Shown piece after piece: positions 17,053-62,952 of a stretch of 64,000 nucleotides of DNA. Each line of letters opens with the position of its first letter. The stretch's first letter is position 1. The notes beneath the pieces are model-generated. The model was not told the origin of the DNA, searched no databases, and saw only the letters and a list, made by a program, of their open reading frames with translations. Location of the stretch: positions 476,595 through 540,594 of the forward strand of contig NZ_NIBV01000001.1 in assembly GCF_002632585.1 (NCBI RefSeq), in the 5' to 3' direction. Source of the stretch: Xenorhabdus szentirmaii DSM 16338. GTDB lineage: Bacteria; Pseudomonadota; Gammaproteobacteria; Enterobacterales; Enterobacteriaceae. A program made the position numbers and the translations under genes.

Positions 17053-18003
17053 TCAGTCATATTTGCCATGTTGAACAATTAAATGCTCAACACCAATCTG
17101 TAAGTAATGAAGATCTCTATAGCCTGTTTCTAACAAAATTTCACTTTCTCCATCAAAAGAATACCGACGGAGATCATTCAACCCACGTGACAAATCTTGG
17201 GTTAATAAAAACAGTTCCCCATCCATGCCTTGCACCGCTTCATTAACCCTAAAGGGTAACCATTTTACTTTCAGTACCTTACTCGTTTTATAATTCATTT
17301 TAATTTCTAATGAAGCGCGATTAGAATTCGGGGTTTGCCAAATTAAAACCTCACTGCCTTTTATTGTAAATAAATATTGATCATCATACATACTATCTGC
17401 ATTATGTTTACTCATAACGCTCTTTATATTTAATTTATTCTGCCAGTTTTTCCCACCATCCGGGCTATAATTAACATTATCTTTGTTAACATATATAATA
17501 TCATCTTCCTCTTTTGAGAACATAATCTCCCCAAAAATAAAGGCCGTTATTCTAGAGCGTTCGTTATTGTTCTTTTTCCAAGGCTGTGATGTAATTATGG
17601 GTTGATCAGCCAAGTTAATTTTAACTATGTTTTTATCCATCAATAATACACAACGTATTTCTGAGCATATAGCATTGTTTAACAACCCTGATAACCCCCC
17701 AAGAAAAACAATCTCACCCCGACGGGAATAATAAATATTATATTCATATTTCCTTTTTTCCATAGGTGTATAATCGTATTTTTTCTTATTAATTTCCATG
17801 CCAACAATAACAATTAAACCTTCTTTAACGGGATAAGATTTTATAATATCAACATTGCTTAACGTTGTCTTATTGTTTATATTCTCATTCCACTTCCATG
17901 CAGAGTAATAGTTTTTATCAATAAATAAATACCAACCTAATAAACCAATGGAAAACATGACGGTTATAATAATCAGATGTCTGTTTAAAAATGGATTAAT
18001 CAT
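17053..18003 (-). CDS. Hypothetical protein with an N-terminal signal anchor and a domain of about 280 aa outside the membrane.
   Basis: 316 aa and very AT-rich. Its start overlaps the stop of the upstream gene. Confidence 0.6.
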   Translation of the reverse strand: MINPFLNRHLIIITVMFSIGLLGWYLFIDKNYYSAWKWNENINNKTTLSNVDIIKSYPVKEGLIVIVGMEINKKKYDYTPMEKRKYEYNIYYSRRGEIVFLGGLSGLLNNAICSEIRCVLLMDKNIVKINLADQPIITSQPWKKNNNERSRITAFIFGEIMFSKEEDDIIYVNKDNVNYSPDGGKNWQNKLNIKSVMSKHNADSMYDDQYLFTIKGSEVLIWQTPNSNRASLEIKMNYKTSKVLKVKWLPFRVNEAVQGMDGELFLLTQDLSRGLNDLRRYSFDGESEILLETGYRDLHYLQIGVEHLIVQHGKYD

Positions 18004-18575
18004 TATTTCAACACCACCACATCAGAGTTTTTATTCAATTTATGTCGTTTATTACTTAAGTAATAATAAATTTGATGGCAAATCTTACCATTCCTTGAAA
18101 ACACCTTATAAAGGGTACATGCCATTTCCAAAAAGAAGAAAATACCAAAAAATACAGTGAGTAAAATAAATGAAAATTCAAAAAATGAAGATAAGACATC
18201 TATCCAATCCCAATAATAAAAAACATATCCACTTTCTATAAAATTAGACAATGTCTTTCTTAAAAAAATATCAGTTGTTGTATTTCTTTCAGTATATCTA
18301 TGCCAATCCATGTCTCTGACAGGCATAATTTTTGTGGATAATACCCCTAATTTTTTAAGGATTTCATCATCCATTGATTTGACATAATTATTTGTCTTTT
18401 TTTGTTTAGGATAATAATTCTTAACGCCATCGACATCCAGATAAATTGAATCAGGATTTATATTATACCTTCCTTCCAGTACGCTATTTAATGCTTTTAA
18501 TAATTTTCGTCGGCCAGGATGAAATATAAGTATCGTTTTACGTATTCCTCTAACAATGAAATAGAAAACCAGCAA
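18003..18575 (-). CDS. Hypothetical protein with a C-terminal TM helix.
   Basis: 190 aa, AT-rich and translationally coupled to its neighbours. Confidence 0.55.
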   Translation of the reverse strand: MLVFYFIVRGIRKTILIFHPGRRKLLKALNSVLEGRYNINPDSIYLDVDGVKNYYPKQKKTNNYVKSMDDEILKKLGVLSTKIMPVRDMDWHRYTERNTTTDIFLRKTLSNFIESGYVFYYWDWIDVLSSFFEFSFILLTVFFGIFFFLEMACTLYKVFSRNGKICHQIYYYLSNKRHKLNKNSDVVVLK

Positions 18576-18981
18576 GCATTAAAATAGTAACGAATGCCAT
18601 AAATATTACATCCGAGAAATCATTATTTTTAGAAGAAATATTAAGGTAATGTACCCATACTCCCGAAAATACAACCATCATCCCTATAACAAAAGAGCAA
18701 AGCATAGAGAACTTGAAGACATAATTCTTGTTGGACTCTAAATACCCTTTAGTTGCATGATGTAACCAATGCAGCCAGTACGTTCCATCCTTTAATCGGT
18801 GAGCGCCTATCTTTAATTGATCACCAGATTCAAGTTTCCTCAACACCTGCTGACAGTCAGGAAAATTTTCTTGGCGAAAAAAGAAAACTTCACCAGAGGC
18901 AATTAACCTCACCATATTTTCCAGTATAACGTTTTCATAGTCACACTTTTCCAATGTGACATTAAAAAATTGAGGATTCAT
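18550..18981 (-). CDS. Hypothetical protein with a soluble N-domain and two C-terminal TM helices.
   Basis: 143 aa and the first gene of the AT-rich operon. Confidence 0.55.
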   Translation of the reverse strand: MNPQFFNVTLEKCDYENVILENMVRLIASGEVFFFRQENFPDCQQVLRKLESGDQLKIGAHRLKDGTYWLHWLHHATKGYLESNKNYVFKFSMLCSFVIGMMVVFSGVWVHYLNISSKNNDFSDVIFMAFVTILMLAGFLFHC

Positions 18982-19107
18982 CGAAAAAAATATTCCCCTG
19001 TATTTTGATTATCATAATCATTCCGGTTAACTTTTTTACAGGAGAAAATAGCGACCTTTTTGCTTTTTTTCCAATTCAGTGAAACATTTTTGTTTTCCCT
19101 GACTCAA

Positions 19108-19731
19108 TTATCTCCGGCTACTCAGCGCTAAATTAAACGCAAAAAGTAAAAATACCCCGCCGGTCACTCGATTCATCCACTTAACCACGTTTTCGCGGCG
19201 TAAAATGTGGGAAAGGGGGCGGGTGGCATAAATCAATGATAATGACCAGAATGTGCCAAGCAAGACATGAATAGACACTAAACTAAATGTCCACAAAACG
19301 GGTGAATGCCCTTGAGGAATAAACTGCGGCAAAAATGAAACATAAAATACGCCCATTTTCGGATTGAGAACATTACCCAACATTCCCTTGATAAACCAAT
19401 TTTGATTTTTGGTAGAAGAGGTAATTTCTCCACCAAGATCTTTTTTAGGATGCCACATCATTTGCATGCCCAACCAACATAAATACAGCGCACCACACCA
19501 TTTCAATATGTTGAATGCCAATTCTGATACCGCAATCAAAGTTCCAAGTCCAAAAGCCACCATCGCACCCCAAATAAAGCACCCTGCATTTATGCCAAGC
19601 GCTGCCTGAAAGGCTTTTTTGCCGCTTTCTACGGTTGCGGTCCTAAGAATCAATGCGGTGTCCAAGCCCGGTGTCAATGTGAGCAGGGTTGCGGCAACGG
19701 TAAATGCAAGGAGGGAATCCATCGCGGTCAT
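19108..19731 (-). CDS. LysE/RhtB-family amino-acid exporter.
   Basis: 207 aa, six TM helices, N-terminal LTPGLDTALIL motif. Confidence 0.8.
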   Translation of the reverse strand: MTAMDSLLAFTVAATLLTLTPGLDTALILRTATVESGKKAFQAALGINAGCFIWGAMVAFGLGTLIAVSELAFNILKWCGALYLCWLGMQMMWHPKKDLGGEITSSTKNQNWFIKGMLGNVLNPKMGVFYVSFLPQFIPQGHSPVLWTFSLVSIHVLLGTFWSLSLIYATRPLSHILRRENVVKWMNRVTGGVFLLFAFNLALSSRR

Positions 19732-19750
19732 ACTTTCTCCAAATGTTTTA

Positions 19751-20317
19751 TCAAAGATGCGAAATGATGCTTATATATTTTACGGGTACCGTTTTCGTCA
19801 ACCAAACACCATTATCTGCCTGATGGAATTTAAAACCTTGTTCATTCATCAGCCGGGCGTCAATTTTCAAAATGATAACCTTGCCATGGCGCGCTCCCAC
19901 CTTCGTTGCGGTGGTTTTATCCGCCGATAAATGCACATAGTGCCGCGTTCCCGCCGCCAGCCCCTGTTTGAAAATAGAGTCCAGAAAACGAGTCGCTGTG
20001 CCGTGATACAGAGTGTCAGGCGGCGTTTTTTCCTGATAGCGAATATCTACCCGTTGAGTAGAATGCCCTTGTACTGCCCTGATACGTAGCTGATCCACCG
20101 AAAGAGCAAATCGCTTCTTGTCATTCGTTTCAACAATGTTCTCAATCAGCGCCCAGTTTAATTGCTTGCCGTGTCTGGCTGCACATTTGATTAATACGCC
20201 AATATCCGCCCAGCCTTCACTATCCAGGGTTAAACCTATCGATTCCGGTTGATGGCGCAAGATATAACTTAAAAACTTGCTGGTTTTGGTATCTGCCAGA
20301 TCCCTGTTTTTACCCAT
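19751..20317 (-). CDS. kptA: RNA 2'-phosphotransferase Tpt1/KptA.
   Basis: Collinear with E. coli KptA ([34 protein letters not shown]). Confidence 0.9.
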
Positions 20318-20461
20318 TATTTTTCCTTCCGTTTATTTGAAACGACTTAACTCAGGGTGTTATCCAATCGAGTCTATGCTATTCATTTTTATTGAAGGGG
20401 ACTTTTTATTGATGAATACTAAGCAGGGCCAAAGCCCCGCTGAGTCCATATTCTGACATAA

Positions 20462-21292
20462 TTAGCCGGTCATTACCCAACGTCTTAAATAGCGATCCAG
20501 TAATTCAGTACTGCGTTCGCGCTGATCATTGAGTTCACAGCGCGCCCGTGCTTCATCCAATTCTGATTCAATAAAAGCATGAACCTTCAATTTACGGGAA
20601 CCATATTCTGATTCATTCGCTGCCCGCTTTATCCGCAGCAACTCATCAATATCCATTTTCAATTGTGGGTCATCCACGGTTCCCGCGACCAGCGTTTCAA
20701 AATCTATCGGTGGTGCGCCCTTTCCCATTTCAATCCAGCGAACCGCAAGCAAAGGGCGCAAAACATAAAAATATTTTTTGAGCCGGATTTTTTCACCTTG
20801 CAGGTAGCCCTGAAAGTTCTTTTTCGCCATTGAAAGATAGTGATAGCGCGCTTTTATATCCGAGAAAAAGCACGGTGCCATCGTTTTCAATCCGTTGGTT
20901 GCAGCCGGATCAGCATGATAAATGATGGGTGAATCCAGCCATTCCATTAAAGTCGGGTTGGCCTGTTTCATCAGTTTTAGCGCCTTGCGCAACTCCCAGC
21001 CATTGATATCCAACTCATCGCTGATCGGCAGTTCGATGACATCCCGCCCGTCTTCTACTTTCAGATACCACTCCACGGGATGAACGTAAATAAACCGGAC
21101 ATCGTAATCGCTGTCGGGGGAGGCAACCCCCCACCCACGACTGCCGGATTCACAGGCATACAATATCCGCACACCATATTTTTTTTCTATATCCACCAAT
21201 TCCTGACAGATACGAGCCTTCATCGCCGGACTGACAGCACTGTCTTCTGTATCCAGTTCCATTTCTGTGTCTAGTTCCATTTCTTTTTCCAT
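20462..21292 (-). CDS. Pol-beta-superfamily nucleotidyltransferase (COG3541-like).
   Basis: GSRGWGVASPDSDYDVRFIY nucleotidyltransferase motif. It lies between rtcB and kptA. Confidence 0.65.
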   Translation of the reverse strand: MEKEMELDTEMELDTEDSAVSPAMKARICQELVDIEKKYGVRILYACESGSRGWGVASPDSDYDVRFIYVHPVEWYLKVEDGRDVIELPISDELDINGWELRKALKLMKQANPTLMEWLDSPIIYHADPAATNGLKTMAPCFFSDIKARYHYLSMAKKNFQGYLQGEKIRLKKYFYVLRPLLAVRWIEMGKGAPPIDFETLVAGTVDDPQLKMDIDELLRIKRAANESEYGSRKLKVHAFIESELDEARARCELNDQRERSTELLDRYLRRWVMTG

Positions 21293-21330
21293 CTATTCTT
21301 TTTCCATCTATTCTTTATTTTTTGGGAAAA

Positions 21331-22572
21331 CTAACCTTTTACACACACCACTTGACGCAAGGTATGCACGATTTCCACCAGCGAAGACTGTGCTTGCATC
21401 ACCGCATCGATATCTTTATAAGCCATCGGGATCTCATCGATGACCTCGCTGTCTTTACGGCATTCCACATGTGCTGTTGCGCGTTTTTGGTCGCTGACGG
21501 TAAAACGCTTTTTCGCTTCGGTACGGCTCATCACCCGGCCTGCACCATGACTGCATGAACAAAAACTCTCTTCGTTACCCAACCCACGGACGATATAGCT
21601 TTTCACCCCCATTGATCCCGGAATAATCCCCATCTGGCCTTTTCGGGCAGATACCGCACCTTTGCGTGTCACCAAAACCTCTTCACCATAATGCTGTTCA
21701 CGCTGCACATAGTTATGATGGCAATTCACGGCTTCCTGCTGTGTTGTGAAAGGTTTCGGGATCTCACGTGACAGTGCTTCAAGCACGCGGTGCATCATTA
21801 CCTCACGGTTCTGGCGGGCATAGTCCTGTGCCCAACCCACCGCTTCCATATAGTCGTCAAAATAACGGCTTCCTTCCTCGAAATACGCTAAATCACGATC
21901 CGGCAAGTTAGCCATATGCTGCTGCATGTCTTTCTGTGCCAAGGTGATAAACAAGTTACCAATCGCATTTCCAACGCCACGGGAGCCGCTATGCAACATC
22001 ACCCAGACACGGTCTGCTTCATCAAGGCATAACTCAATAAAATGGTTTCCCGTTCCCAGCGTCCCCAGATGATTGTGGTTATTGGTGTTCAGCAACTTAG
22101 GGTATTTATCGGTAATACGCTTAAACCCCTCCGCCAATGTTCCCCAATGTTGATCCACAATCTCCGGTGCTTTGTTCCAAGACCCTTTATCACGACCGCC
22201 ACGGTTTACGGTACGCCCGTGCGGTACTGCGGCTTCAATGGCATGGCGAATATTCAGCAGGCTGTCCGGCAAATCAGAGGCCACCAGAGAAGTCCGCACA
22301 GCAATCATTCCGCAACCAATATCAACACCAACAGCTGCCGGAATAATGGCGCCGCGTGTTGGGATCACGCTACCGATGGTAGAACCTTTACCGACATGCA
22401 CATCCGGCATTACAGCCAAGTGCTTAAAAACAAACGGCATTTTGGCCGTGTTCTGCAATTGAATGATCGCCTTGGGATCAACGGGAACGCCGTTCGTCCA
22501 CATTTTTACCGGTGCACCATTCTCTTGCTTCAATAAGTGATAAGCGTTGGCTTTCATCTCTGTCGTTGTCAT
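21331..22572 (-). CDS. rtcB: RNA-splicing ligase RtcB.
   Basis: Near-identical blocks to E. coli RtcB (PDVHVGKGSTIGSVIPT, NHNHLGTLGTGNHFIE, CHHNYV, SCSHGAGR). Confidence 0.95.
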   Translation of the reverse strand: MTTTEMKANAYHLLKQENGAPVKMWTNGVPVDPKAIIQLQNTAKMPFVFKHLAVMPDVHVGKGSTIGSVIPTRGAIIPAAVGVDIGCGMIAVRTSLVASDLPDSLLNIRHAIEAAVPHGRTVNRGGRDKGSWNKAPEIVDQHWGTLAEGFKRITDKYPKLLNTNNHNHLGTLGTGNHFIELCLDEADRVWVMLHSGSRGVGNAIGNLFITLAQKDMQQHMANLPDRDLAYFEEGSRYFDDYMEAVGWAQDYARQNREVMMHRVLEALSREIPKPFTTQQEAVNCHHNYVQREQHYGEEVLVTRKGAVSARKGQMGIIPGSMGVKSYIVRGLGNEESFCSCSHGAGRVMSRTEAKKRFTVSDQKRATAHVECRKDSEVIDEIPMAYKDIDAVMQAQSSLVEIVHTLRQVVCVKG

Positions 22573-23711
22573 TTTTGTTCTCCTTTAATGTGTACCAATC
22601 CGTTTAGAACCTGATCTAAACCGCCATATACCGAAATCTGATTAATGCGCTCTGCAATACTTTCCAATGTTTCCAGCTCCTTTAGCCGTAAGGCAATGGG
22701 ATTGTTTTCCATCACCTTCGCGGTATTCAGCAGAGAGCGGGTCGCCGCTGTTTCTTCCCGGCGCCGGATCACATTCGCCTGTGCGGATTTTTCTGCCTCA
22801 ACAACCTGCGATAAAATGGCCTTCATATCGCCGGGCAAAATAATGTCTTTTACCCCCAGAGAGGCCACTTCCAGCCCAAAATTTTGGGTGATTTCCAGAA
22901 GTTGCTGACTGACCAATTCATCAATGACTTGTTTGTTTTCCAACAGCTCATCCAGCGAACGGGTTCCGACCACTTCCCGCAATGCGAATTGCAACTCCCG
23001 ATACAGATAAGCCACAGGCTCACTGAGTTGTCCGTAAGCCATCAATACATCGTGATAACGCCAGTTAGCGGATAAATTGATGCGCAGATTTACTTTGTCA
23101 CGCGTTAAAATTTCTTGCCCGCTCACTTCCAGCGACTGTAAACGGGTATCGATAATTTCTACTGCAACGTCATACCCGACCCGCCAGTAACCTTTTATTC
23201 CCGGCTGCAAGAGTTCCTGCACCGTGCCATCCACTTTTAAAATACCCAGATGCCAAGCTGGGATTTGAGCAATCAAAACACTGTCCCACCCTTTCACGCT
23301 GTGCTTGCGTGACATGGAGGCCGTCAATAGGGAAACCAGCTCTGGTGATACTTCCAGCTCTGAAGTTTTGAACTTCACAATGCGACGCGGATTACCATTT
23401 TTCCAATACAAACGGCGTGTTGCAGGAGGGAGGATCTCCATCAGCAAATCATGTTCATACAACAATCCCAGCTCATCTTCGGCAAGCTGTATATCGTCGC
23501 AATACTGCCCTATCCAAGAGGAATAATACTGACGCAAGTGCTCTGCCCGTTTTGTCTCAATTTCATTTCCATTCAGATCAAAAATCGTCACTTTCAGTTT
23601 GTTAAACCAATCATAGAAGCGGTATTCGCCAGCCACCAAAATCTGTTGGTATTCAGATTTTTTTGCCAATAAACCTATTTGTCCCTGCAATATTTTTATT
23701 TTTTTGATCAT
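22569..23711 (-). CDS. SPFH/band-7 (stomatin/prohibitin-like) domain protein, the first gene of the rtcB operon.
   Basis: 380 aa with an SPFH core. Its stop overlaps the rtcB start by 4 nt. Confidence 0.7.
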   Translation of the reverse strand: MIKKIKILQGQIGLLAKKSEYQQILVAGEYRFYDWFNKLKVTIFDLNGNEIETKRAEHLRQYYSSWIGQYCDDIQLAEDELGLLYEHDLLMEILPPATRRLYWKNGNPRRIVKFKTSELEVSPELVSLLTASMSRKHSVKGWDSVLIAQIPAWHLGILKVDGTVQELLQPGIKGYWRVGYDVAVEIIDTRLQSLEVSGQEILTRDKVNLRINLSANWRYHDVLMAYGQLSEPVAYLYRELQFALREVVGTRSLDELLENKQVIDELVSQQLLEITQNFGLEVASLGVKDIILPGDMKAILSQVVEAEKSAQANVIRRREETAATRSLLNTAKVMENNPIALRLKELETLESIAERINQISVYGGLDQVLNGLVHIKGEQK

Positions 23712-23937
23712 TATTATTTTCCTTCTTATTTTTATCTTCCCTTACATTCTGAAAACTGAGCATCAGGGCGAGGCCAAGGAGGGAATACACAGGTACCCAA
23801 CTGCGGTAGCTCAGTATTCTGCCCTTAGCTCAGCAACATCTGCCGAGCTTTCAAAATGGTGGTTCTCAACAGGCAACCACAGGATTTTATTTCTTTTTTT
23901 TCAATGTGTTTTACTGGGAAAGTAAAAGGTATTTCAT

Positions 23938-23990
23938 GTTTCGAATTTGGGATTCGAACCCAATTAAACCCTGAATGTTATTCGACCATT
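23938..23990 (-). ncRNA. tRNA-like minihelix (T-arm plus acceptor mimic) in the rtcB-operon leader. Candidate Y-RNA/YrlA-like element.
   Basis: The minus strand reads TCGAAT..TTGGG-TTCGAAT-CCCAA-ATTCGA, a canonical T-stem/T-loop flanked by a 6-bp acceptor-like pairing. It lies downstream of the sigma54 promoter. Confidence 0.3.
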
Positions 23991-24093
23991 GTCTATACAC
24001 TGACGGAATACATACGGCGTAATGGCTCATGCCATCACCCATGCACCGGCTGGATTTTGAATCCGTGCTATTTCAGCGTATGACTCCCTAGTT

Positions 24094-24110
24094 ATTGCCA
24101 ATTACGTGCC
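24094..24110 (-). promoter_or_regulatory. Sigma54 (-24/-12) promoter driving the SPFH-rtcB-NTase-kptA operon.
   Basis: Minus strand TGGCACGTAATTGGCAA. GG and GC have the correct spacing, with one mismatch to the TTGCA consensus. Confidence 0.6.
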
Positions 24111-24262
24111 AACTTCGGAAAAAAACAGAAATATTTTTTATCTATTTGAAAAATAATTATTTTTATTTCAGGTTGTTTTTAGTGATGGTTTTTATGGTTA
24201 GATTTCTTTATCTTTCCCTATCGTTGTTTATAAATTCAGATAAATAAAACACAGAGAAGACA

Positions 24263-25840
24263 ATGAAACGCAGAGTGGCCATCGGGATTTTGGGAACTAA
24301 ATTAGACAGGCGCGGCAAGAAAGCCAATCGATGGGCAAAATGGCGGCCAACCGTCGGAATGTGCCAGCAGCCGGAATTACCGGTTGATAGGCTGGAACTG
24401 CTTTACCAATCCAATGATTCTGTTTTGGCGGAGAGGGTTAAAGAGGATATTGAGCAGGTGTCACCACAAACAAAAGTGGTGTTGCATGAAATTCAAATTG
24501 AAAATCCATGGGATTTCGAAGAAGTTTATACGGCATTGCTGGATTTTGCCGTTCGCTACCCTTTCGATATCGAAAATGAAGAATATCTGGTCCATATCAC
24601 CACCGGCACCCACGTTGCCCAAATTTGCTGGTTCTTACTCACGGAAGCCCGTTATTTACCAGCTCAATTGCTTCAAACCGCCCCCAATAATCAGGGTGAT
24701 GAGATCCATCCCGAAGGTGTTTACACAATCATCGATTTAGATCTCAGCCGTTATACGACACTGACCAGCCGCTTTCTGCGGGAACAACAGGAGCAGGTGG
24801 CGTTTCTGAAATCAGGCATCGCAACACGCAATGCTAACTTTAACCATTTGATAGACCAAGTTGAACGCGTCGCCTTGCGCTCTGCTGCCCCCATTTTGCT
24901 GACAGGGCCTACGGGAGCGGGCAAATCTTTCCTCGCACGCCGGATCTACCAGTTGCGGCAATCGCGCCATTTAATCAAAGGGCAGTTTGTCGAGGTGAAT
25001 TGCGCTACCCTGCGGGGTGACAATGCCATGTCTACCCTGTTCGGACACGTCAAAGGGGCATTTACGGGCGCCATTCAGCCACGCGCAGGATTGCTCCGTG
25101 AAGCAGATAACGGCATTCTGTTTCTTGACGAAGTGGCTGAACTCGGATTGGATGAACAAGCGATGTTGCTGAAAGCCATTGAAGAAAAACATTTCCTGCC
25201 TTATGGCTCCGACAAGGCGGTTTACAGTGATTTCCAATTAATTGCCGGTACACATCGTGACTTACAGGATTGGGTCGCTCAAGGGAAATTCCGCGAAGAT
25301 TTATATGCCCGCATCAATATGTGGACATATCAACTGCCCGGTCTGGCACAACGCCGTGAAGATATTGAACCCAACATTGATTATGAACTTGCCCGCTATG
25401 CTCAAATGCAGCAAACACAGGTTCGTTTTGATAAAGAAGCAAGAAAAATTTACCTGCATTTTGCCTGCTCTGAACAGGCGCAATGGCGGGGCAACTTTCG
25501 TGAACTCAGCGCTTCCATCACGCGGATGGCAACATTTGCCGAAAATGGGCGCATCAATCAATCTTTGGCAGAAGAAGAAATCACACGTTTGAAAAAAAGT
25601 TGGCATGGTGGGCGGCACTCCGCTTTATTGCCTGACCACCTGCCCGACATTGATCTGTTCGATCGCCAGCAGCTGGAAACTGTGATTACGATCTGCCGAG
25701 AATCCACCAGCTTATCGGAAGCGGGACGCAAACTTTTCGCCGTTTCCCGCCAACATAAAAAACGGCCCAATGATGCCGATAGACTACGCAAGTATCTTGC
25801 CCGATTCGGTCTGGATTGGGAAAGCCTTCAACATGGTTAG
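24263..25840 (+). CDS. rtcR: Sigma54-dependent regulator RtcR (CARF plus AAA+ plus HTH).
   Basis: Collinear with E. coli RtcR, with a GAFTGA motif. It is divergent from the rtcB operon. Confidence 0.9.
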   Translation: MKRRVAIGILGTKLDRRGKKANRWAKWRPTVGMCQQPELPVDRLELLYQSNDSVLAERVKEDIEQVSPQTKVVLHEIQIENPWDFEEVYTALLDFAVRYPFDIENEEYLVHITTGTHVAQICWFLLTEARYLPAQLLQTAPNNQGDEIHPEGVYTIIDLDLSRYTTLTSRFLREQQEQVAFLKSGIATRNANFNHLIDQVERVALRSAAPILLTGPTGAGKSFLARRIYQLRQSRHLIKGQFVEVNCATLRGDNAMSTLFGHVKGAFTGAIQPRAGLLREADNGILFLDEVAELGLDEQAMLLKAIEEKHFLPYGSDKAVYSDFQLIAGTHRDLQDWVAQGKFREDLYARINMWTYQLPGLAQRREDIEPNIDYELARYAQMQQTQVRFDKEARKIYLHFACSEQAQWRGNFRELSASITRMATFAENGRINQSLAEEEITRLKKSWHGGRHSALLPDHLPDIDLFDRQQLETVITICRESTSLSEAGRKLFAVSRQHKKRPNDADRLRKYLARFGLDWESLQHG

Positions 25841-25866
25841 GATAATCACATTATGGAACTGAAACT

Positions 25867-26787
25867 ATGGAACTGAAATTTTTAGGCACCAGCGCCGGCG
25901 TTCCCACTAAAGAGCGTAACGTCACCAGCCTGATCCTCGATTTGCAGGGCACCCGCAATGCATTGTGGATGTTTGATTGCGGGGAAGGAACACAACATCA
26001 GATCCTCCATTCTTCGGTCAAGATCTCCAAACTGGAGAAAATTTTTATCACTCACCTGCACGGGGATCATATCTTTGGTTTGCCCGGTTTGCTGTGCAGC
26101 CGCTCAATGGGCGGCTCTACCGACCCGCTTACCTTATATGGCCCGACCGGCATACGCCAGTTTGTGGAAACTTCACTGCAACTGAGCAGCTCTTTTCTGA
26201 CCTATCCTCTGGACATTACCGAAGTTCAGGCAGGGCCGTTATTTGATGATGGTGAGCTGAAAGTCACGGCTTACGCTTTAAACCATCGCGTGGAATGTTA
26301 TGGCTATCGCATTGAAGAACATGATAAAGCCGGTGCACTGGATACCCAGAAACTGGATCAGGACGCCATCCCCCGTGGCCCGTGGATGCAGGCATTAAAA
26401 CAAGGCGGCACAATCACCCTGGAAGATGGCCGTACCATTTGTGGTAAAGATTATTTAGGTGTGCCGATCCGGGGTAAATCACTGGCCATTTTCGGGGATA
26501 CTGAACCAACGCCGGAAGCCCTGAAAATGGCGGCCAATGTTGATGTGATGGTACATGAAATCACATTGGAAGATGCCTTTGCCGAAAAAGCCAATGAACG
26601 GGGCCATTCCACCACCAAACAGGCCGCAGCACTGGCCCGTGATGCCAAGGCAAAACACTTTATCGCCACCCATATCAGCGGACGTTATGGCGTTGAAGAT
26701 TGCCCGCGGTTATTGGCGGAATGCCGGGAAATATTCCCCAATACCGATCTGGCTAAAGATTTTGCCGTGTTCCCGGTGAGAACGTGA
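25867..26787 (+). CDS. rbn: RNase BN / RNase Z.
   Basis: 306 aa with HLHGDH. It is near-collinear with E. coli ElaC/Rbn. Confidence 0.9.
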
Positions 26788-27848: not shown

Positions 27849-28277
27849 ATGAATTACGCACAAGTTTCACCTGAAATCATTCATCCGTTATATAAAAGCT
27901 ATGAAAAAATCCATGCCTCTGAACTGGATCAGGCACTGATTCTGCTGGTGGAAACACGGGTATCCCAAATTAATGCCTGTGCCTATTGTTGTCACCTCCA
28001 TGCTGAAATGCTCCGGCAAAATCATGGTTTGGCACCAGCAAAACTGGATAAACTGCCCGCATGGTTCAATTCCAGTATTTACACGCCAAAAGAAAAACTG
28101 GCGCTGGAATGGGCTGAAGCCCTGACAACAAATCCCAGACAAAATGTGTTGGATGAGATCAAAATCCGCCTTGATGGCGTCTTTACGGAAAAAGAAATTG
28201 TTGATTTAACCGCCGCCATTGCCTTAATGAATGCATTGAACAGAATGGCCATCAGTTTGGGTGACAGAAACGAATAG
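27849..28277 (+). CDS. Carboxymuconolactone decarboxylase / AhpD-like family protein.
   Basis: CAYCCHLH motif and about 143 aa. Confidence 0.6.
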   Translation: MNYAQVSPEIIHPLYKSYEKIHASELDQALILLVETRVSQINACAYCCHLHAEMLRQNHGLAPAKLDKLPAWFNSSIYTPKEKLALEWAEALTTNPRQNVLDEIKIRLDGVFTEKEIVDLTAAIALMNALNRMAISLGDRNE

Positions 28278-32410: not shown

Positions 32411-34729
32411 TTAGATAAGGCGAGAAAATTTAGATTTATCCTGTTCAGTGAGAGACAGTTTCACTGGCACAGATTTTGACGTGGGTGTGCCGGTTCCATC
32501 CCCAATACTTTCCATTGGGACTAAAGGGTTCGTTTCAGGGTAGTAAGCGGCGAGGTTCCCACGGGGAATGGAATAAGGCACTAATTTGAAGCCAAACACT
32601 TTACGCGGGACTCCGTCATTCCATATTGTTTCGATATCCACCAAATCACCGGCCTGATAGCCCGATTGTGCAATATCTTCCGGGTTCATAAATAACACTT
32701 CCCGTTGCCCGTAAACCCCACGGTACCGGTCATCCAAACCATAAATGGTGGTGTTGTACTGGTCATGGGAACGCAAGGTCTGCAATGTGAAAGGAACGTC
32801 TGCAAGTGCAATTTGGGGAAATAAGGTGTTCGGCAGAGCCGCATGGCTGAATTCTGCTTTTTGGCTTGCCGTTGCAAAGCGTAATTCCGCCGCCGCATTC
32901 CCGAGATAAAACCCTCCCGCTTGTTCACATTTTTTATTGAAATCATCAAATCCGGGGATGGTTGCTGCAATATGGTCGCGGATTTTATTGTAATCACCCG
33001 CCAGTTCCAGCCAGTTAATCGTTTCGAGATGACCAACCGTTGCGTCAGCAATACCTGCAATAATTGAGGTTTCAGAACGCTGGGTATCAAACAGCGGTTT
33101 ATTCACGCCTTCTGACGCATGAACCATACTGAAAGAGTCTTCTACTGTCACAAATTGTGGGCCGGTAGCCTGAATATCCCGTTCGGTACGCCCCAACGTT
33201 GGCAGGATAAGCGCCCCTTTTTTGCCCGTAACCAGATGACTCCGGTTTAGTTTTGTACTGATATGCACGGTCAGATCGCAATGTTTCAACGCTTCTTCGG
33301 TGCGCGGGCTATCCGGCGCTGCCGCCGCAAGGTTTCCACCCAATGCAATCAACACCTTAACCTCATCACGCAACATCGCACTCAGGGCTTCCACAACGTT
33401 ATGCCCGTGGGCACGGGGAGGTTCGAATCCAAAATGGGCGGCCAAGCTATCCAAGAAAGGCTTGTTGGGTTGTTCATTAATCCCCATCGTCCGATTGCCC
33501 TGCACATTACTGTGACCGCGCACGGGGCAAAGCCCTGCACCGGGTTTCCCCAACTGACCAAACAACAATTGCAAATTGACTATTTCACGCACGGTCGCCA
33601 AAGAGTGTTTATGTTGAGTGATCCCCATTGCCCAAGTGCAAATCACACGCTCTGCGTTCTGGTAAATCGCCGCCGCTTCCCGCAACTGTGTTTCAGACAA
33701 TCCGGATTGAGCCTCAATAAACGACCATTCTGTCTCAGCGACTTCTTGCAAGTAGGCTTCCACACCTTTGGTATAAGTGTTAATAAACTCCCTATCAAAA
33801 ATGCCCGGTTGACCATCAGCCAGCCGTGCATTATGCGTTTCCAGAAGCGCCTTAACCATTCCCCGCACCGCGGCCATATCACCACCTAATTTAGGTTGGT
33901 AGTAGCGATGGCTAATTTCTCCCGCCCTTGAAGTCACCACTTCAAGGGGTTTTTGTGGATCTGCGAAACGTTCCAAACCTCGTTCACGCAATGTATTGAA
34001 GGTCACAATGCGCGCTCCGTGTTCAGCCGCATGTCTCAGGCTATGCAGCATTCGCGGGTGGTTTGTGCCGGGGTTCTGGCCAAAGACAAAAATGGCATCC
34101 GCATGATCGAAATCTTGCAGCCGGATTGTTCCTTTCCCCACCCCCAAGCTTTGTAACATGCCGAAACCGCTGGCTTCATGGCACATGTTGGAACAATCAG
34201 GGAAGTTATTCGTTCCCAGCACGCGGCCAAACAACTGGTACAGCCATGAGGCTTCATTACTGGCTCGGCCAGAAGTATAGAGCTCAAGCTGATCGGGATT
34301 ATCCATCGCATTGATATGGCAGGCGATCAGCGCAAAAGCGTCATCCCAGCTAATCGGCTCATAGTGATCCGTTTGTGGGTTGTAGCTCAACGGCTCAACA
34401 ACCCGCCCTTGATATTCAAGGAAATAATCACTTTGCTGGTAAAGTTTACTGACGCTGTGAGTTGCAAAAAATGTCCGATCAATATAGCGGTGGGTTGCTT
34501 CCCATGTGACCGCCTTAGCGCCATTTTCACAAAAACTGAACAGGCTTTTATTATCATCTCCCCATGCACATCCCGGACAATCAAAGCCTTTGGGCTTGTT
34601 CATGCGCATCAGGTTAACCATATTTTTCAGGGCTTGTTTGCTATCAAAGACAAAGCGGGTTGTTGCCTCCAGTGATCCCCAACCACCAGCCGCTGAGTGG
34701 TAAGGTTTTATTTTGGATTTGAATTTCAT
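32411..34729 (-). CDS. YdeP/FdhF-like molybdopterin oxidoreductase alpha subunit.
   Basis: 772 aa with an N-terminal Cys cluster DCPGCAWGD and molybdopterin oxidoreductase family architecture. Confidence 0.75.
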   Translation of the reverse strand: MKFKSKIKPYHSAAGGWGSLEATTRFVFDSKQALKNMVNLMRMNKPKGFDCPGCAWGDDNKSLFSFCENGAKAVTWEATHRYIDRTFFATHSVSKLYQQSDYFLEYQGRVVEPLSYNPQTDHYEPISWDDAFALIACHINAMDNPDQLELYTSGRASNEASWLYQLFGRVLGTNNFPDCSNMCHEASGFGMLQSLGVGKGTIRLQDFDHADAIFVFGQNPGTNHPRMLHSLRHAAEHGARIVTFNTLRERGLERFADPQKPLEVVTSRAGEISHRYYQPKLGGDMAAVRGMVKALLETHNARLADGQPGIFDREFINTYTKGVEAYLQEVAETEWSFIEAQSGLSETQLREAAAIYQNAERVICTWAMGITQHKHSLATVREIVNLQLLFGQLGKPGAGLCPVRGHSNVQGNRTMGINEQPNKPFLDSLAAHFGFEPPRAHGHNVVEALSAMLRDEVKVLIALGGNLAAAAPDSPRTEEALKHCDLTVHISTKLNRSHLVTGKKGALILPTLGRTERDIQATGPQFVTVEDSFSMVHASEGVNKPLFDTQRSETSIIAGIADATVGHLETINWLELAGDYNKIRDHIAATIPGFDDFNKKCEQAGGFYLGNAAAELRFATASQKAEFSHAALPNTLFPQIALADVPFTLQTLRSHDQYNTTIYGLDDRYRGVYGQREVLFMNPEDIAQSGYQAGDLVDIETIWNDGVPRKVFGFKLVPYSIPRGNLAAYYPETNPLVPMESIGDGTGTPTSKSVPVKLSLTEQDKSKFSRLI

Positions 34730-59045: not shown

Positions 59046-59930
59046 CTATTGTTGGTTCGATTCCGATAAGTCATCTTGTCTTTGGCCCAATAATGCCAAT
59101 TCCAACAATGCGTAGCGGTGCTCAACAAAGTTATGCACATTGTTAGCTACCGTCAGCTTGAATAACGCAGCTGCGCTATCCTCATCCCCCAGACTTAGGT
59201 AATGTTTACCTAAATAGAAGTCAGTTTCACTGAGATGCTCAGCGAGCGAAGTGTTATCCGCTGAATTCTGTTGCAAACGCACCATCAGTGTTTTTTCACT
59301 GATTTTGCCCAGATAGAATTCAACGATATTCCAGCCCCATAGCCCCCGGTTCGCTTTGTCAAAATGGTACGACAAATTTGTCATTGCAACCTTAGGATCG
59401 ATTTTTTCTTCCACAAGGTACAACCACAACGAACGGAAGGGATCATTTGGATCGTCTTGATAAAACGCCTGCAGATCATCCTGCGCCAATTGATAGCGGC
59501 CACCGTAATACAGTGCAATGCCGCGATTCATTCGCGCGTAGTTGTAAGTTGGATCAAGCTCTAAAACAGAATCAAACGCTTCATAGGCAGAATCAAAATT
59601 ACCTGCCTGCGTAAAATAAATTCCCAGATAATTAAAAATTTCAGGAATATCAGGGCGGATAGACAAAGCTACTGAAAAATCATTCTGTGCCAATGCCCTC
59701 AGCCCGAGGCTATCATACAGTACACCGCGTTCATATAAAAGCTGTGCATACTCATCTTCTGTAAGTGACCGACTCGCAAGTATTTGTTCCATACGAGCCA
59801 GAATAACCTCTTGTTGCAATGTCGGTTGTAATGGAATAGCAATCAGTTCATTTTTACGCCACCCAGTGCTGCCACATCCTACAAGGAAAAAAATAGCCGC
59901 AACATAACACCAGCGCAGAAAAGAATTCAT
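59046..59930 (-). CDS. nlpI: TPR lipoprotein NlpI.
   Basis: Lipobox LVGC and TPR repeats. It sits between deaD and pnp as in E. coli. Confidence 0.9.
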
Positions 59931-62246: not shown

Positions 62247-62408
62247 AATAATTTTCCTTTGATTAGTGTTACCGACTTAGGTTAAGTCTCAGCAACAATG
62301 GACTTTCTCTTCTTGCTACACCCTCACGACTAATGACAGAACTCAGTATTCCTTAAGCACTCTCATTAGCCGCGCGAATCACTGTAGCGGAAGAGATTCA
62401 GGTTTTGG

Positions 62409-62446
62409 AAACGGTATCTAAATTTCTCAATTCCGTTTCCTAGAAG
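62409..62446 (-). promoter_or_regulatory. Stem-loop in the pnp 5' leader (candidate RNase III autoregulatory hairpin).
   Basis: GGAAACGG(n22)CCGTTTCC inverted repeat between rpsO and pnp. Confidence 0.4.
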
Positions 62447-62447
62447 A

Positions 62448-62482
62448 AAAGGGGCCCGATTAGGCCCCTTTCCACTGAAACT
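62448..62482 (-). terminator. rpsO rho-independent terminator.
   Basis: The minus strand reads AAAGGGGCCTAATCGGGCCCCTTTTCTTC. Confidence 0.8.
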
Positions 62483-62488
62483 TATCGA

Positions 62489-62758
62489 TTAGCGACGCAG
62501 ACCCAGACGCTCAATCAGCGTGGTGTAGCGAGCCAAGTCTTTACGCTTCAGGTAGTTCAGCAGTTTACGACGCTGTGCAACTTTTCTCAACAGACCACGA
62601 CGGCTGTGGTGATCTTTCTTGTGCTCAGAGAAGTGACCTTGCAGTTGGTTAATGTCAGCAGTCAGCAGGGCAATCTGAACTTCGCTGGAACCACTGTCGT
62701 TAGCGCCACGGCCAAAATCAACAAGAATCTGCGCTTTTGCAGCAGTACTTAGAGACAT
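62489..62758 (-). CDS. rpsO: 30S ribosomal protein S15.
   Basis: 89 aa with [18 protein letters not shown]... Confidence 0.95.
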
Positions 62759-62952
62759 AGTATAACTCCAAATATGTAGTTTAAAATGACGAGTGCCGAT
62801 CTCTAATTCAGCGACTCATATATAGACGCGGTATTCTACGCTGCAAATAAGTGAAGCGCAAGACAGCACAATTGCCGCCATTCACTGCTTCAACGCAATT
62901 TGTCTGCTCAAAATTCCTTGTCAGTTACTATATTCCTTGTCAGGAACAAGCA

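Follow-up and report, generated by a model that had tools for sequence, protein, structure and literature searches.

A candidate tRNA mimic, conserved in structure, in the leader of the SPFH-RtcB RNA-repair operon of Xenorhabdus szentirmaii

What is a segment that looks like one end of a tRNA doing in the leader of an RNA-repair operon? The question is raised by a stretch of 64,000 nucleotides (nt) from Xenorhabdus szentirmaii DSM 16338 (contig NZ_NIBV01000001.1, positions 476,595 to 540,594; hereafter the window, with positions counted from its first letter), in which a sigma-54 promoter, a leader and the genes for an SPFH/Band-7 protein, the RNA ligase RtcB, the nucleotidyltransferase RlaP and the RNA 2′-phosphotransferase KptA follow one another on the minus strand (Table 1). 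The original prediction, made from the letters of the window, had placed a tRNA-like T-arm/acceptor minihelix in this leader and had proposed it as a Y-RNA-like noncoding RNA. The comparative analysis reported here indicates that the element is very probably a conserved, structured tRNA mimic, a judgment grounded in alignments of related leaders, and that a second structured RNA, here called Module I, lies directly upstream of it.

The mimic comprises 47 nt of the minus strand (23986-23940) and consists of three arms, namely, a 6-base-pair (bp) acceptor, a 3-bp D-like hairpin and a T arm; an anticodon arm is absent, and only 16 nt separate the 5′ strand of the acceptor from the T arm. The T-arm/acceptor motif and the two distances given for it originally were confirmed, the element lying approximately 135 to 170 nt downstream of the sigma-54 promoter and the 3′ end of its acceptor 229 nt upstream of the SPFH start codon (ATG at 23711). 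The prediction was also right about the missing anticodon arm but wrong in stating that there is no D arm, since a D-like mini hairpin is found at 23967-23979. As in a canonical tRNA, the T arm has a 5-bp stem and a GTTCRANYC loop and is followed directly by the 3′ strand of the acceptor; the full cloverleaf that tRNA finders detect is lacking. Indeed, ARAGORN called no tRNA gene in the 64-kb window, and an Rfam scan of positions 23600-24300 returned no match at the gathering score or at an E value of ≤10, the tRNA family RF00005 included, which agrees with the view that the element is tRNA-like and noncoding and is not a tRNA gene. The covariance model for YrlA, one of those to which the original prediction had pointed, likewise gave nothing at an E value of ≤10 in that segment. 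GGTTCRANTCC, an 11-mer expected 0.29 times in the window, is present there four times; the other three sites (28063-28073, 33420-33430 and 59054-59064 [+]) lie inside open reading frames (ORFs) and lack complementary stems, and both stems are found only at the leader site. On its own, the 47-mer folds into the acceptor and the T arm, with a minimum free energy (MFE) of −8.3 kcal/mol and a z score of −0.22 relative to shuffled sequences. Because this stability is unremarkable, the case against a chance resemblance rests on comparative evidence. Two ORFs on the opposite strand (23704-23925 and 23856-24083) are not credible, because the loops vary by 1 to 2 nt among Xenorhabdus species and would shift the reading frame.

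An alignment of homologues of the SPFH protein served to fetch 80 loci from Enterobacterales, Pseudomonas, Burkholderia and many other Betaproteobacteria (single loci are referred to by L numbers). A T-arm motif, GTTC(G/A)AnTC, was found upstream of the SPFH gene in 78 of them, and its stems covary. Enterobacterales loci contain a single T-arm copy, at −180 to −250 from SPFH; most Pseudomonas and Betaproteobacterial loci contain two copies 70 to 75 nt apart, the stems of which differ by locus while their complementarity is kept. Two types of tRNA-like module could be distinguished, and many loci hold two or three modules. The full-length module, which is proximal to SPFH, combines a 5-bp acceptor, either TTGGA/TCCAA or TTCGA/TCGAA, with a T arm, a canonical D arm (TAGCTCAGTCGGTAGAGC) and a pseudo-anticodon arm whose stem covaries and whose loop is variable and often a tetraloop. 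Many of these modules are called as tRNAs by ARAGORN, with odd, inconsistent or impossible anticodons, and they score 36 to 60 bits with the Rfam tRNA model. The mini module, upstream of the full-length one, has a 6- to 7-bp acceptor followed directly by a 3- to 4-bp hairpin with GG in its loop (e.g., CTC-GTCGG-GAG, ATTC-TGGG-GAAT or GCA-TGGT-TGC), then a 3- to 5-nt linker (replaced by an additional tetraloop hairpin in Comamonadaceae and certain others) and the T arm. Enterobacterales, including the window, have the mini type only, and the full-length module is absent from them. Of the 41 mini copies from outside the Enterobacterales, 19 encode a CCA after the discriminator (at positions 74-76, give or take 1 nt), compared with 4 of 70 full-length copies, and its presence in the mini copies points to 3′ maturation of the tRNA type. 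The mini copies of X. bovienii and Proteus encode CCA as well; that of the window does not.

Since the length of the insert varies, MAFFT lost the register of the 5′ strands of the acceptors; the arms were parsed by hand, and unpaired columns were padded with N for the seed. The alignment is thereby fitted to the structure, with slide controls and an independent match in the window as safeguards. A covariance model, R1, was built from 13 Betaproteobacterial mini modules, with Enterobacterales excluded; in its seed, 94.9% of the cells are paired, compared with 32 to 52% after sliding, and changes on both sides are seen in 12 of 15 pairs. Run against the 64-kb window, R1 gave a single full-length match (model positions 1-52), at 23936-23986 on the minus strand, with 28.3 bits and an E value of 1.5 × 10−5. 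The model also matched Proteus, Erwinia, Superficieibacter, Franconibacter, Mangrovibacter and three other Xenorhabdus species. Its alignment to the window skipped the D-like hairpin, which is assigned there by homology.

Across 43 copies, 92% of the cells are paired (34 to 54% when slid) and compensatory changes occur in 13 of 15 pairs; all seven acceptor pairs and all three D-like pairs covary, and 97.2% of the T-arm cells are paired. Three of the 13 compensated pairs change within Xenorhabdus, where X. szentirmaii shares the acceptor TCGAAT/ATTCGA with the window, X. miraniensis has ATGAAC/GTTCGT and X. bovienii has GTGAAC/GTTCAC. The T arm and the D-like hairpin (AAC...AGG GTT) are kept in all three, the stem AAC/GTT of the latter being constant in the genus and its loop 5 to 7 nt long. 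The G-U pairs are valid solely in the minus-strand transcript.

Module I, the second RNA of the leader, is a predicted structure of approximately 94 nt whose first bases (GTC...) coincide with the inferred transcription start site and pair with its own 3′ end. Its fold is stable (MFE of −35.7 kcal/mol, z score of −3.77) and independent of that of the mimic. In an RNAalifold analysis of 17 Enterobacterales, 19 of 23 Module I pairs showed double changes; for the full structure in these 17, 90.4% of the cells are paired, compared with 36 to 48% after sliding, and compensatory changes occur in 24 of 32 pairs. The end pairs of its closing helix P1 switch from GTC/GAC in Enterobacterales to GAC/GTC in Pseudomonas. 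Of 74 leaders, 70 contain a core, CCGG(Y)GC ... (G)YATGCCGCC or GTTCCGYC, and these include leaders without a mimic, Module I being kept more widely than the mimic itself. In the lineages inspected by eye, it ends 3 to 5 nt before the acceptor. No Rfam family matched Module I, either in the window leader at an E value of ≤10 or in the other leaders scanned, and no description of it turned up in a search of the literature. Of the two RNAs, Module I may be the one that matters more and is known less.

The setting of both RNAs agrees with the original prediction, which had located the element in the RtcR/sigma-54-transcribed leader of an SPFH-rtcB-rlaP-kptA operon; the Pfam matches listed in Table 1 support this arrangement. 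From the spacing of the promoter, transcription would start at approximately 24086-24084. Of 85 sources (the window and L001-L084), 74 have a TGGCAY-N5-T[TGC]GC motif upstream of the leader, and rtcR is divergent in 75 of the fetched loci. A scan of the leader found no sigma-70 promoter and no terminator (terminator-like sites were sought over 23500-24400), and reading the leader as an attenuator is therefore unsupported.

Table 1. Features of the leader and of the flanking genes in the 64-kb window, given in the order of transcription of the operon, with the divergent rtcR gene last
Feature	Position	Strand	Remarks
Sigma-54 (−24/−12) promoter	24096-24111	-	TGGCACGTAATTGGCA; TGGCAC-N5-TTGGCA; GG at 24110-24109, GC at 24098-24097
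Module I	23991-24084	-	structured RNA, approximately 94 nt; from the inferred 5′ end of the transcript to 4-5 nt before the acceptor
Module I, closing helix P1	24084-24073 with 24003-23991	-	GTCATACGCTGA pairs with TCAGTGTATAGAC
Module I, hairpin a	24068-24049	-	T-loop-like GGATTCAAAATCC at 24064-24052
Module I, P2/hairpin b	24048-24004	-	long irregular helix; CGG...CCG closure; UU bulge
Mimic as matched by R1	23986-23936	-	parts in the order of the next five rows, ending in ACAU
Acceptor-like stem, 5′ strand	23980-23986	-	GTCGAAT; six pairs TCGAAT/ATTCGA; G1 opposite A72
D-arm-like mini hairpin	23967-23979	-	AAC-ATTCAGG-GTT; 3-bp stem; loop ending in GG
Linker	23964-23966	-	TAA; between D-like hairpin and T arm
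T arm	23947-23963	-	TTGGG/TTCGAAT/CCCAA; 5-bp stem (23963-23959, 23951-23947); 7-nt T-loop (23958-23952) with GTTCGAATC signature
Acceptor-like stem, 3′ strand	23940-23946	-	ATTCGAA, paired part ATTCGA; followed by ACAU; CCA not encoded
Hairpin downstream of mimic	23909-23927	-	TTTTACT-TTCCC-AGTAAAA; followed by an A-rich tract; not terminator-like
Distal leader (Module III)	23745-23872	-	two predicted hairpins before the ribosome-binding site; holds both TGAGCTA copies
SPFH/Band-7 (slipin) gene	22569-23711	-	380 amino acids; first gene of the operon; Pfam PF01145; 93% identical to X. szentirmaii slipin
RtcB RNA ligase	21331-22572	-	Pfam PF01139
RlaP nucleotidyltransferase	20462-21292	-	Pfam PF10127
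KptA/Tpt1 RNA 2′-phosphotransferase	19751-20317	-	Pfam PF01885
RtcR, sigma-54 activator	24263-25840	+	N-terminal RtcR/CARF domain; divergent; Pfam PF06956 and PF00158

How does the mimic compare with RNAs already described in such operons? A tRNA associated with band 7 (b7a-tRNA) was predicted next to RtcB, with a proposed role as a cofactor, by Burroughs and Aravind in 2016, as cited in a later paper (10.1101/312249); the latter describes the b7a-tRNA as strongly resembling authentic tRNA and as experimentally unvalidated, and proposes that it is functionally redundant with YrlA. The element of the window is also a tRNA-like noncoding RNA that adjoins the Band-7/SPFH gene of an RtcB operon, 229 nt upstream, and by the R1 match it is homologous to tRNA-like modules at the same position in other proteobacteria. 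The description in the citing paper fits the full-length module of Pseudomonas and Betaproteobacteria, whereas the window contains a mini module without a cloverleaf and without a tRNA call. Judged by that description, the b7a-tRNA is the closest known family, of which the window element would be a reduced variant. The original prediction overlooked both this family and the more conserved Module I upstream. An annotated counterpart of the mimic lies in the rtcR-SPFH intergenic region of Pseudomonas aeruginosa, namely, PA4581.1 or "tRNA-Arg4," which lacks CCA, has an atypical D-loop and is detectable by quantitative reverse transcription-PCR (PMC13637947). PA4581.1 is a full cloverleaf with an anticodon, whereas the window element is the reduced form. 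In its stacking of an acceptor on a T arm, its reduced D element and its missing anticodon arm, the mimic resembles acceptor-T-arm minihelices and the tRNA-like domain of transfer-messenger RNA; it differs from them in having no mRNA-like domain, no known aminoacylation identity, no G3:U70 and no CCA. The acceptor-T-arm end of a tRNA is the part recognized by RNase P, the CCA-adding enzyme, TruB/TrmA and EF-Tu.

Taking these observations together, we favor the reading that the element is a functional tRNA-like RNA module made together with Module I and the repair genes, and we put the probability that this is the best overall explanation at roughly 55%. Several points weigh against it. The loci were fetched via SPFH, which biases the sample toward coupling with SPFH, and SPFH-less rtc operons lie outside it. 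Two Pseudomonas loci have no T arm at all, and X. hominickii has lost both the T arm and the next hairpin while retaining Module I and the distal leader; the mimic is thus dispensable in some lineages. Moreover, the helix of the mimic is AU-rich and no more stable than shuffled sequence, and the copy in the window has just six acceptor pairs and does not encode CCA. In X. hominickii, the corresponding segment (L081 2290-2340, ...AACTTAGGGTTCTATCGGATACGCGC...) has lost or decayed versions of both structures. The hairpin that follows the mimic (23909-23927) is kept in X. miraniensis and X. bovienii and is missing along with the T arm in X. hominickii.

On the favored reading, RNA damage would activate RtcR, and the sigma-54 promoter would then give rise to Module I and the mimic along with SPFH, RtcB, RlaP and KptA. 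The mimic may be excised by tRNA-processing enzymes, in which case a cut by RNase P at the 5′ end of the acceptor would also generate the 3′ end of Module I, and the GG of the D-like loop may dock on the T-loop to form a tRNA elbow. Once released, the mimic might act in trans, either by serving the soluble SPFH protein as RNA cofactor or scaffold partner, in the way that a Y RNA serves Ro60, or as a decoy for factors that recognize the acceptor/T-arm end of tRNAs; we propose such a role in trans tentatively, as a possibility with rather less than even odds. The original prediction had suggested a decoy, a sensor ligand or a substrate of the nucleotidyltransferase and KptA as possible roles. 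Lacking an anticodon arm, the mimic is unlikely to be a substrate of anticodon nucleases. A wider and more doubtful proposal is that the leader constitutes a modular noncoding RNA system not described as such, with a Module I core whose ends pair as in Y RNAs and with zero to three tRNA-like modules. With the CCA end that they often encode, the mini modules could be matured, and perhaps charged or CCA-repaired, like tRNA; Module I would be the true RNA partner of the soluble SPFH protein, and the mimics would be exchangeable adaptors or reporters of acceptor-end damage.

Among the rival explanations, the one that fares best is that the fold is a processing signal in cis, which recruits RNase P or RNase Z/BN to release Module I and to trim the 5′ end of the mRNA, and that the minihelix itself has no further job, comparable to the MALAT1-mascRNA pair. 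The short distance between the end of Module I and the acceptor would suit such a signal, as would the wider retention of Module I and the presence of an RNase BN/tRNase Z-like gene beside rtcR in nine loci, including the window. The CCA-less end of the window copy is also of the type handled by tRNase Z. However, X. hominickii and the two Pseudomonas loci keep Module I without a T arm, which makes Module I independent of the mimic, and the two or three modules of many loci, the CCA encoded in many mini copies and the conserved, covarying GG hairpin exceed what a cut site needs. We therefore consider a purely cis-acting signal unlikely, at about one chance in several. Less probable still is that the mimic, or a fragment of it, tunes induction as a feedback ligand or sensor, by binding the CARF domain of RtcR or by sharing the nucleases that attack tRNAs. 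RtcR is activated by damaged tRNAs and reportedly responds to tRNA fragments with 2′,3′-cyclic phosphate ends (PMC7790460), and the mimic lies beside rtcR in 75 loci; yet the mini form lacks the anticodon loop, where tRNAs are usually cleaved into halves. Moreover, rtc induction left the amount of the tRNA-like RNA unchanged in P. aeruginosa (PMC13637947), and Salmonella YrlA was not cleaved by the activating nuclease (PMC7790460).

The kinship with YrlA suggested by the original prediction did not hold up. YrlA (RF02553) is also a tRNA mimic in RtcR/sigma-54 RNA-repair operons, those of Salmonella among them, and has a T arm with a canonical T-loop as well as a D-like element capable of elbow formation, so that the common T arm and a general tRNA mimicry would be explained if the element were a Y RNA of this type working with a Ro60/Rsr protein encoded elsewhere. 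In YrlA, though, the parts come in the order V, T, closed acceptor-like hairpin and D, inside a Ro60-binding stem formed by the 5′ and 3′ ends, and the gene adjoins rsr (Chen 2014, PMC4201824); the window element is not permuted and keeps the normal tRNA order of acceptor 5′ strand, D, T and acceptor 3′ strand. No match to RF02553 was obtained at an E value of ≤10. The Ro-binding motif GNCGAAN0-1G is represented in the window by GTCGAATA, without the final G, and is absent in X. miraniensis and X. bovienii. Neither a TROVE/Rsr protein nor an integrase was found among the ten neighboring ORFs tested (17053-26787), and the gene lists of the related Xenorhabdus loci contain no TROVE/Rsr either; the YrlA explanation is thus very improbable. 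The least credible alternative, refuted by the covariation, is that the resemblance is due to chance or that the element is the decayed 3′ part of a tRNA, an att-like remnant of an old integration conserved only as DNA, for although a T arm with an acceptor 3′ strand is what tRNA-targeting integrases duplicate and the fold is thermodynamically ordinary, the 5′ strand is present here and changes together with the 3′ strand even among Xenorhabdus species, the position relative to the promoter and SPFH is kept across two proteobacterial classes, no integrase lies among those ten ORFs, and the E value of the R1 match is as low as that given above.

Two sets of leaders bear a resemblance to YrlA. 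In Klebsiella, Citrobacter and Phytobacter (L008, L010, L013, L014, L015 and L017; approximately −230 to −130 from the SPFH start), the T arm has no upstream acceptor strand and is followed by a covarying 5- to 6-bp hairpin and a conserved CTGGTTG, an arrangement that looks YrlA-like and circularly permuted; the Rfam YrlA model gave no match on the Citrobacter leader. In one Betaproteobacterial leader (L021 3635-3684), a weak partial match to this model (20.5 bits) begins in the mini module, at its T arm, and extends to the D arm of the module that follows, which hints that a permuted RNA of the YrlA type could arise from tandem tRNA-like units.

Additional observations concern the modules and the sequences around them. 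Full-length modules are present in most of the loci from L018 to L080 (e.g., L018 3603-3744, L023 3572-3717 and L021 3660-3732). A further mini tRNA-like element lies between SPFH and rtcB in L043 (5540-5612), L055 (5320-5371) and L034 (5337-5388); that of L043 ends in ACCA and overlaps the 3′ end of an ORF for a Cys-rich product of 148 amino acids. In three loci of Betaproteobacteria without an RtcR match (L075 2145-2705, L078 153-2031 and L079 2494-2756), arrays of ordinary tRNA genes (Asp, Phe, Arg, Pro, His, Glu and Leu) immediately precede the SPFH leader. The distal leader, Module III, is conserved among Xenorhabdus species, X. hominickii included. The original prediction had noted duplicated TGAGCTA motifs in this region; both are present, but X. 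miraniensis has not kept the first, which reads TGGGTTA there. In other Enterobacterales, the distal leader contains GGCA(A/G)AA...TTCCCC...GCTTCGC motifs, and in Pseudomonas and Betaproteobacteria it contains a conserved motif, AGCAGTACCCGCCGGTGCGG; in all these groups, long hairpins before the ribosome-binding site are predicted. A megablast comparison of the leader with E. coli genomes gave no match, so that E. coli is not the source, and the proteins encoded in this part of the window are 99.5 to 100% identical to those of X. szentirmaii.

As for the proteins, no transmembrane segment is predicted in the SPFH protein, the best 19-residue hydropathy window scoring 1.09, and a region of approximately 148 amino acids precedes its Band-7 domain, unlike in classical membrane stomatins. 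Homologues of approximately 510 to 530 amino acids (L012, L035, L038, L051, L070 and the proteins P0001-P0004) exceed the 380-amino-acid form by approximately 145 residues. An N-terminal extension of the approximately 520-amino-acid homologues over the leader was ruled out, since the intergenic stretch of X. miraniensis is as long as that of the window. In seven Enterobacterales loci (L003, L005, L008, L009, L010, L016 and L017), SPFH is followed directly by RlaP and the fetched stretch contains no RtcB match. The gene that adjoins rtcR in the window (25867-26787, plus strand) has a metallo-beta-lactamase fold with tRNase Z N-terminal matches and is probably RNase BN. Its neighborhood with rtcR, seen in Xenorhabdus, Providencia heimbachae, Erwinia, Brenneria, Lonsdalea and Proteus (the nine loci mentioned above), may be plain synteny; the Xenorhabdus homologues in L081 and L082 carry a precomputed Pfam match to the anti-Pycsar protein Apyc1. 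Elsewhere in the window, Rfam identified the SraG RNA (62309-62473, plus strand) and a ribosomal S15 leader (62702-62819, minus strand) in an rpsO-pnp region that is ordinary for Enterobacterales.

RtcB repair operons are widespread in bacteria, and antibiotics and DNA damage induce them; their substrates and accessory factors are poorly understood. The leader elements described here have been missed or misannotated as odd tRNAs, such as the tRNA-Arg4 of P. aeruginosa, and no Rfam family covers them. The reduced form found in the window defines the minimal conserved part, that is, an acceptor stem, a GG hairpin and a T arm, and thereby narrows what may be recognized. Concrete objects for tests are thereby at hand, namely, two small RNAs whose ends are predicted, in Xenorhabdus, Proteus and Pseudomonas, all of which can be cultured. 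That a tRNA mimic and a second conserved RNA would be made only together with the repair genes suggests a use of RNA cofactors by the SPFH branch of these systems, in parallel with the Y RNAs of the Ro60 branch.

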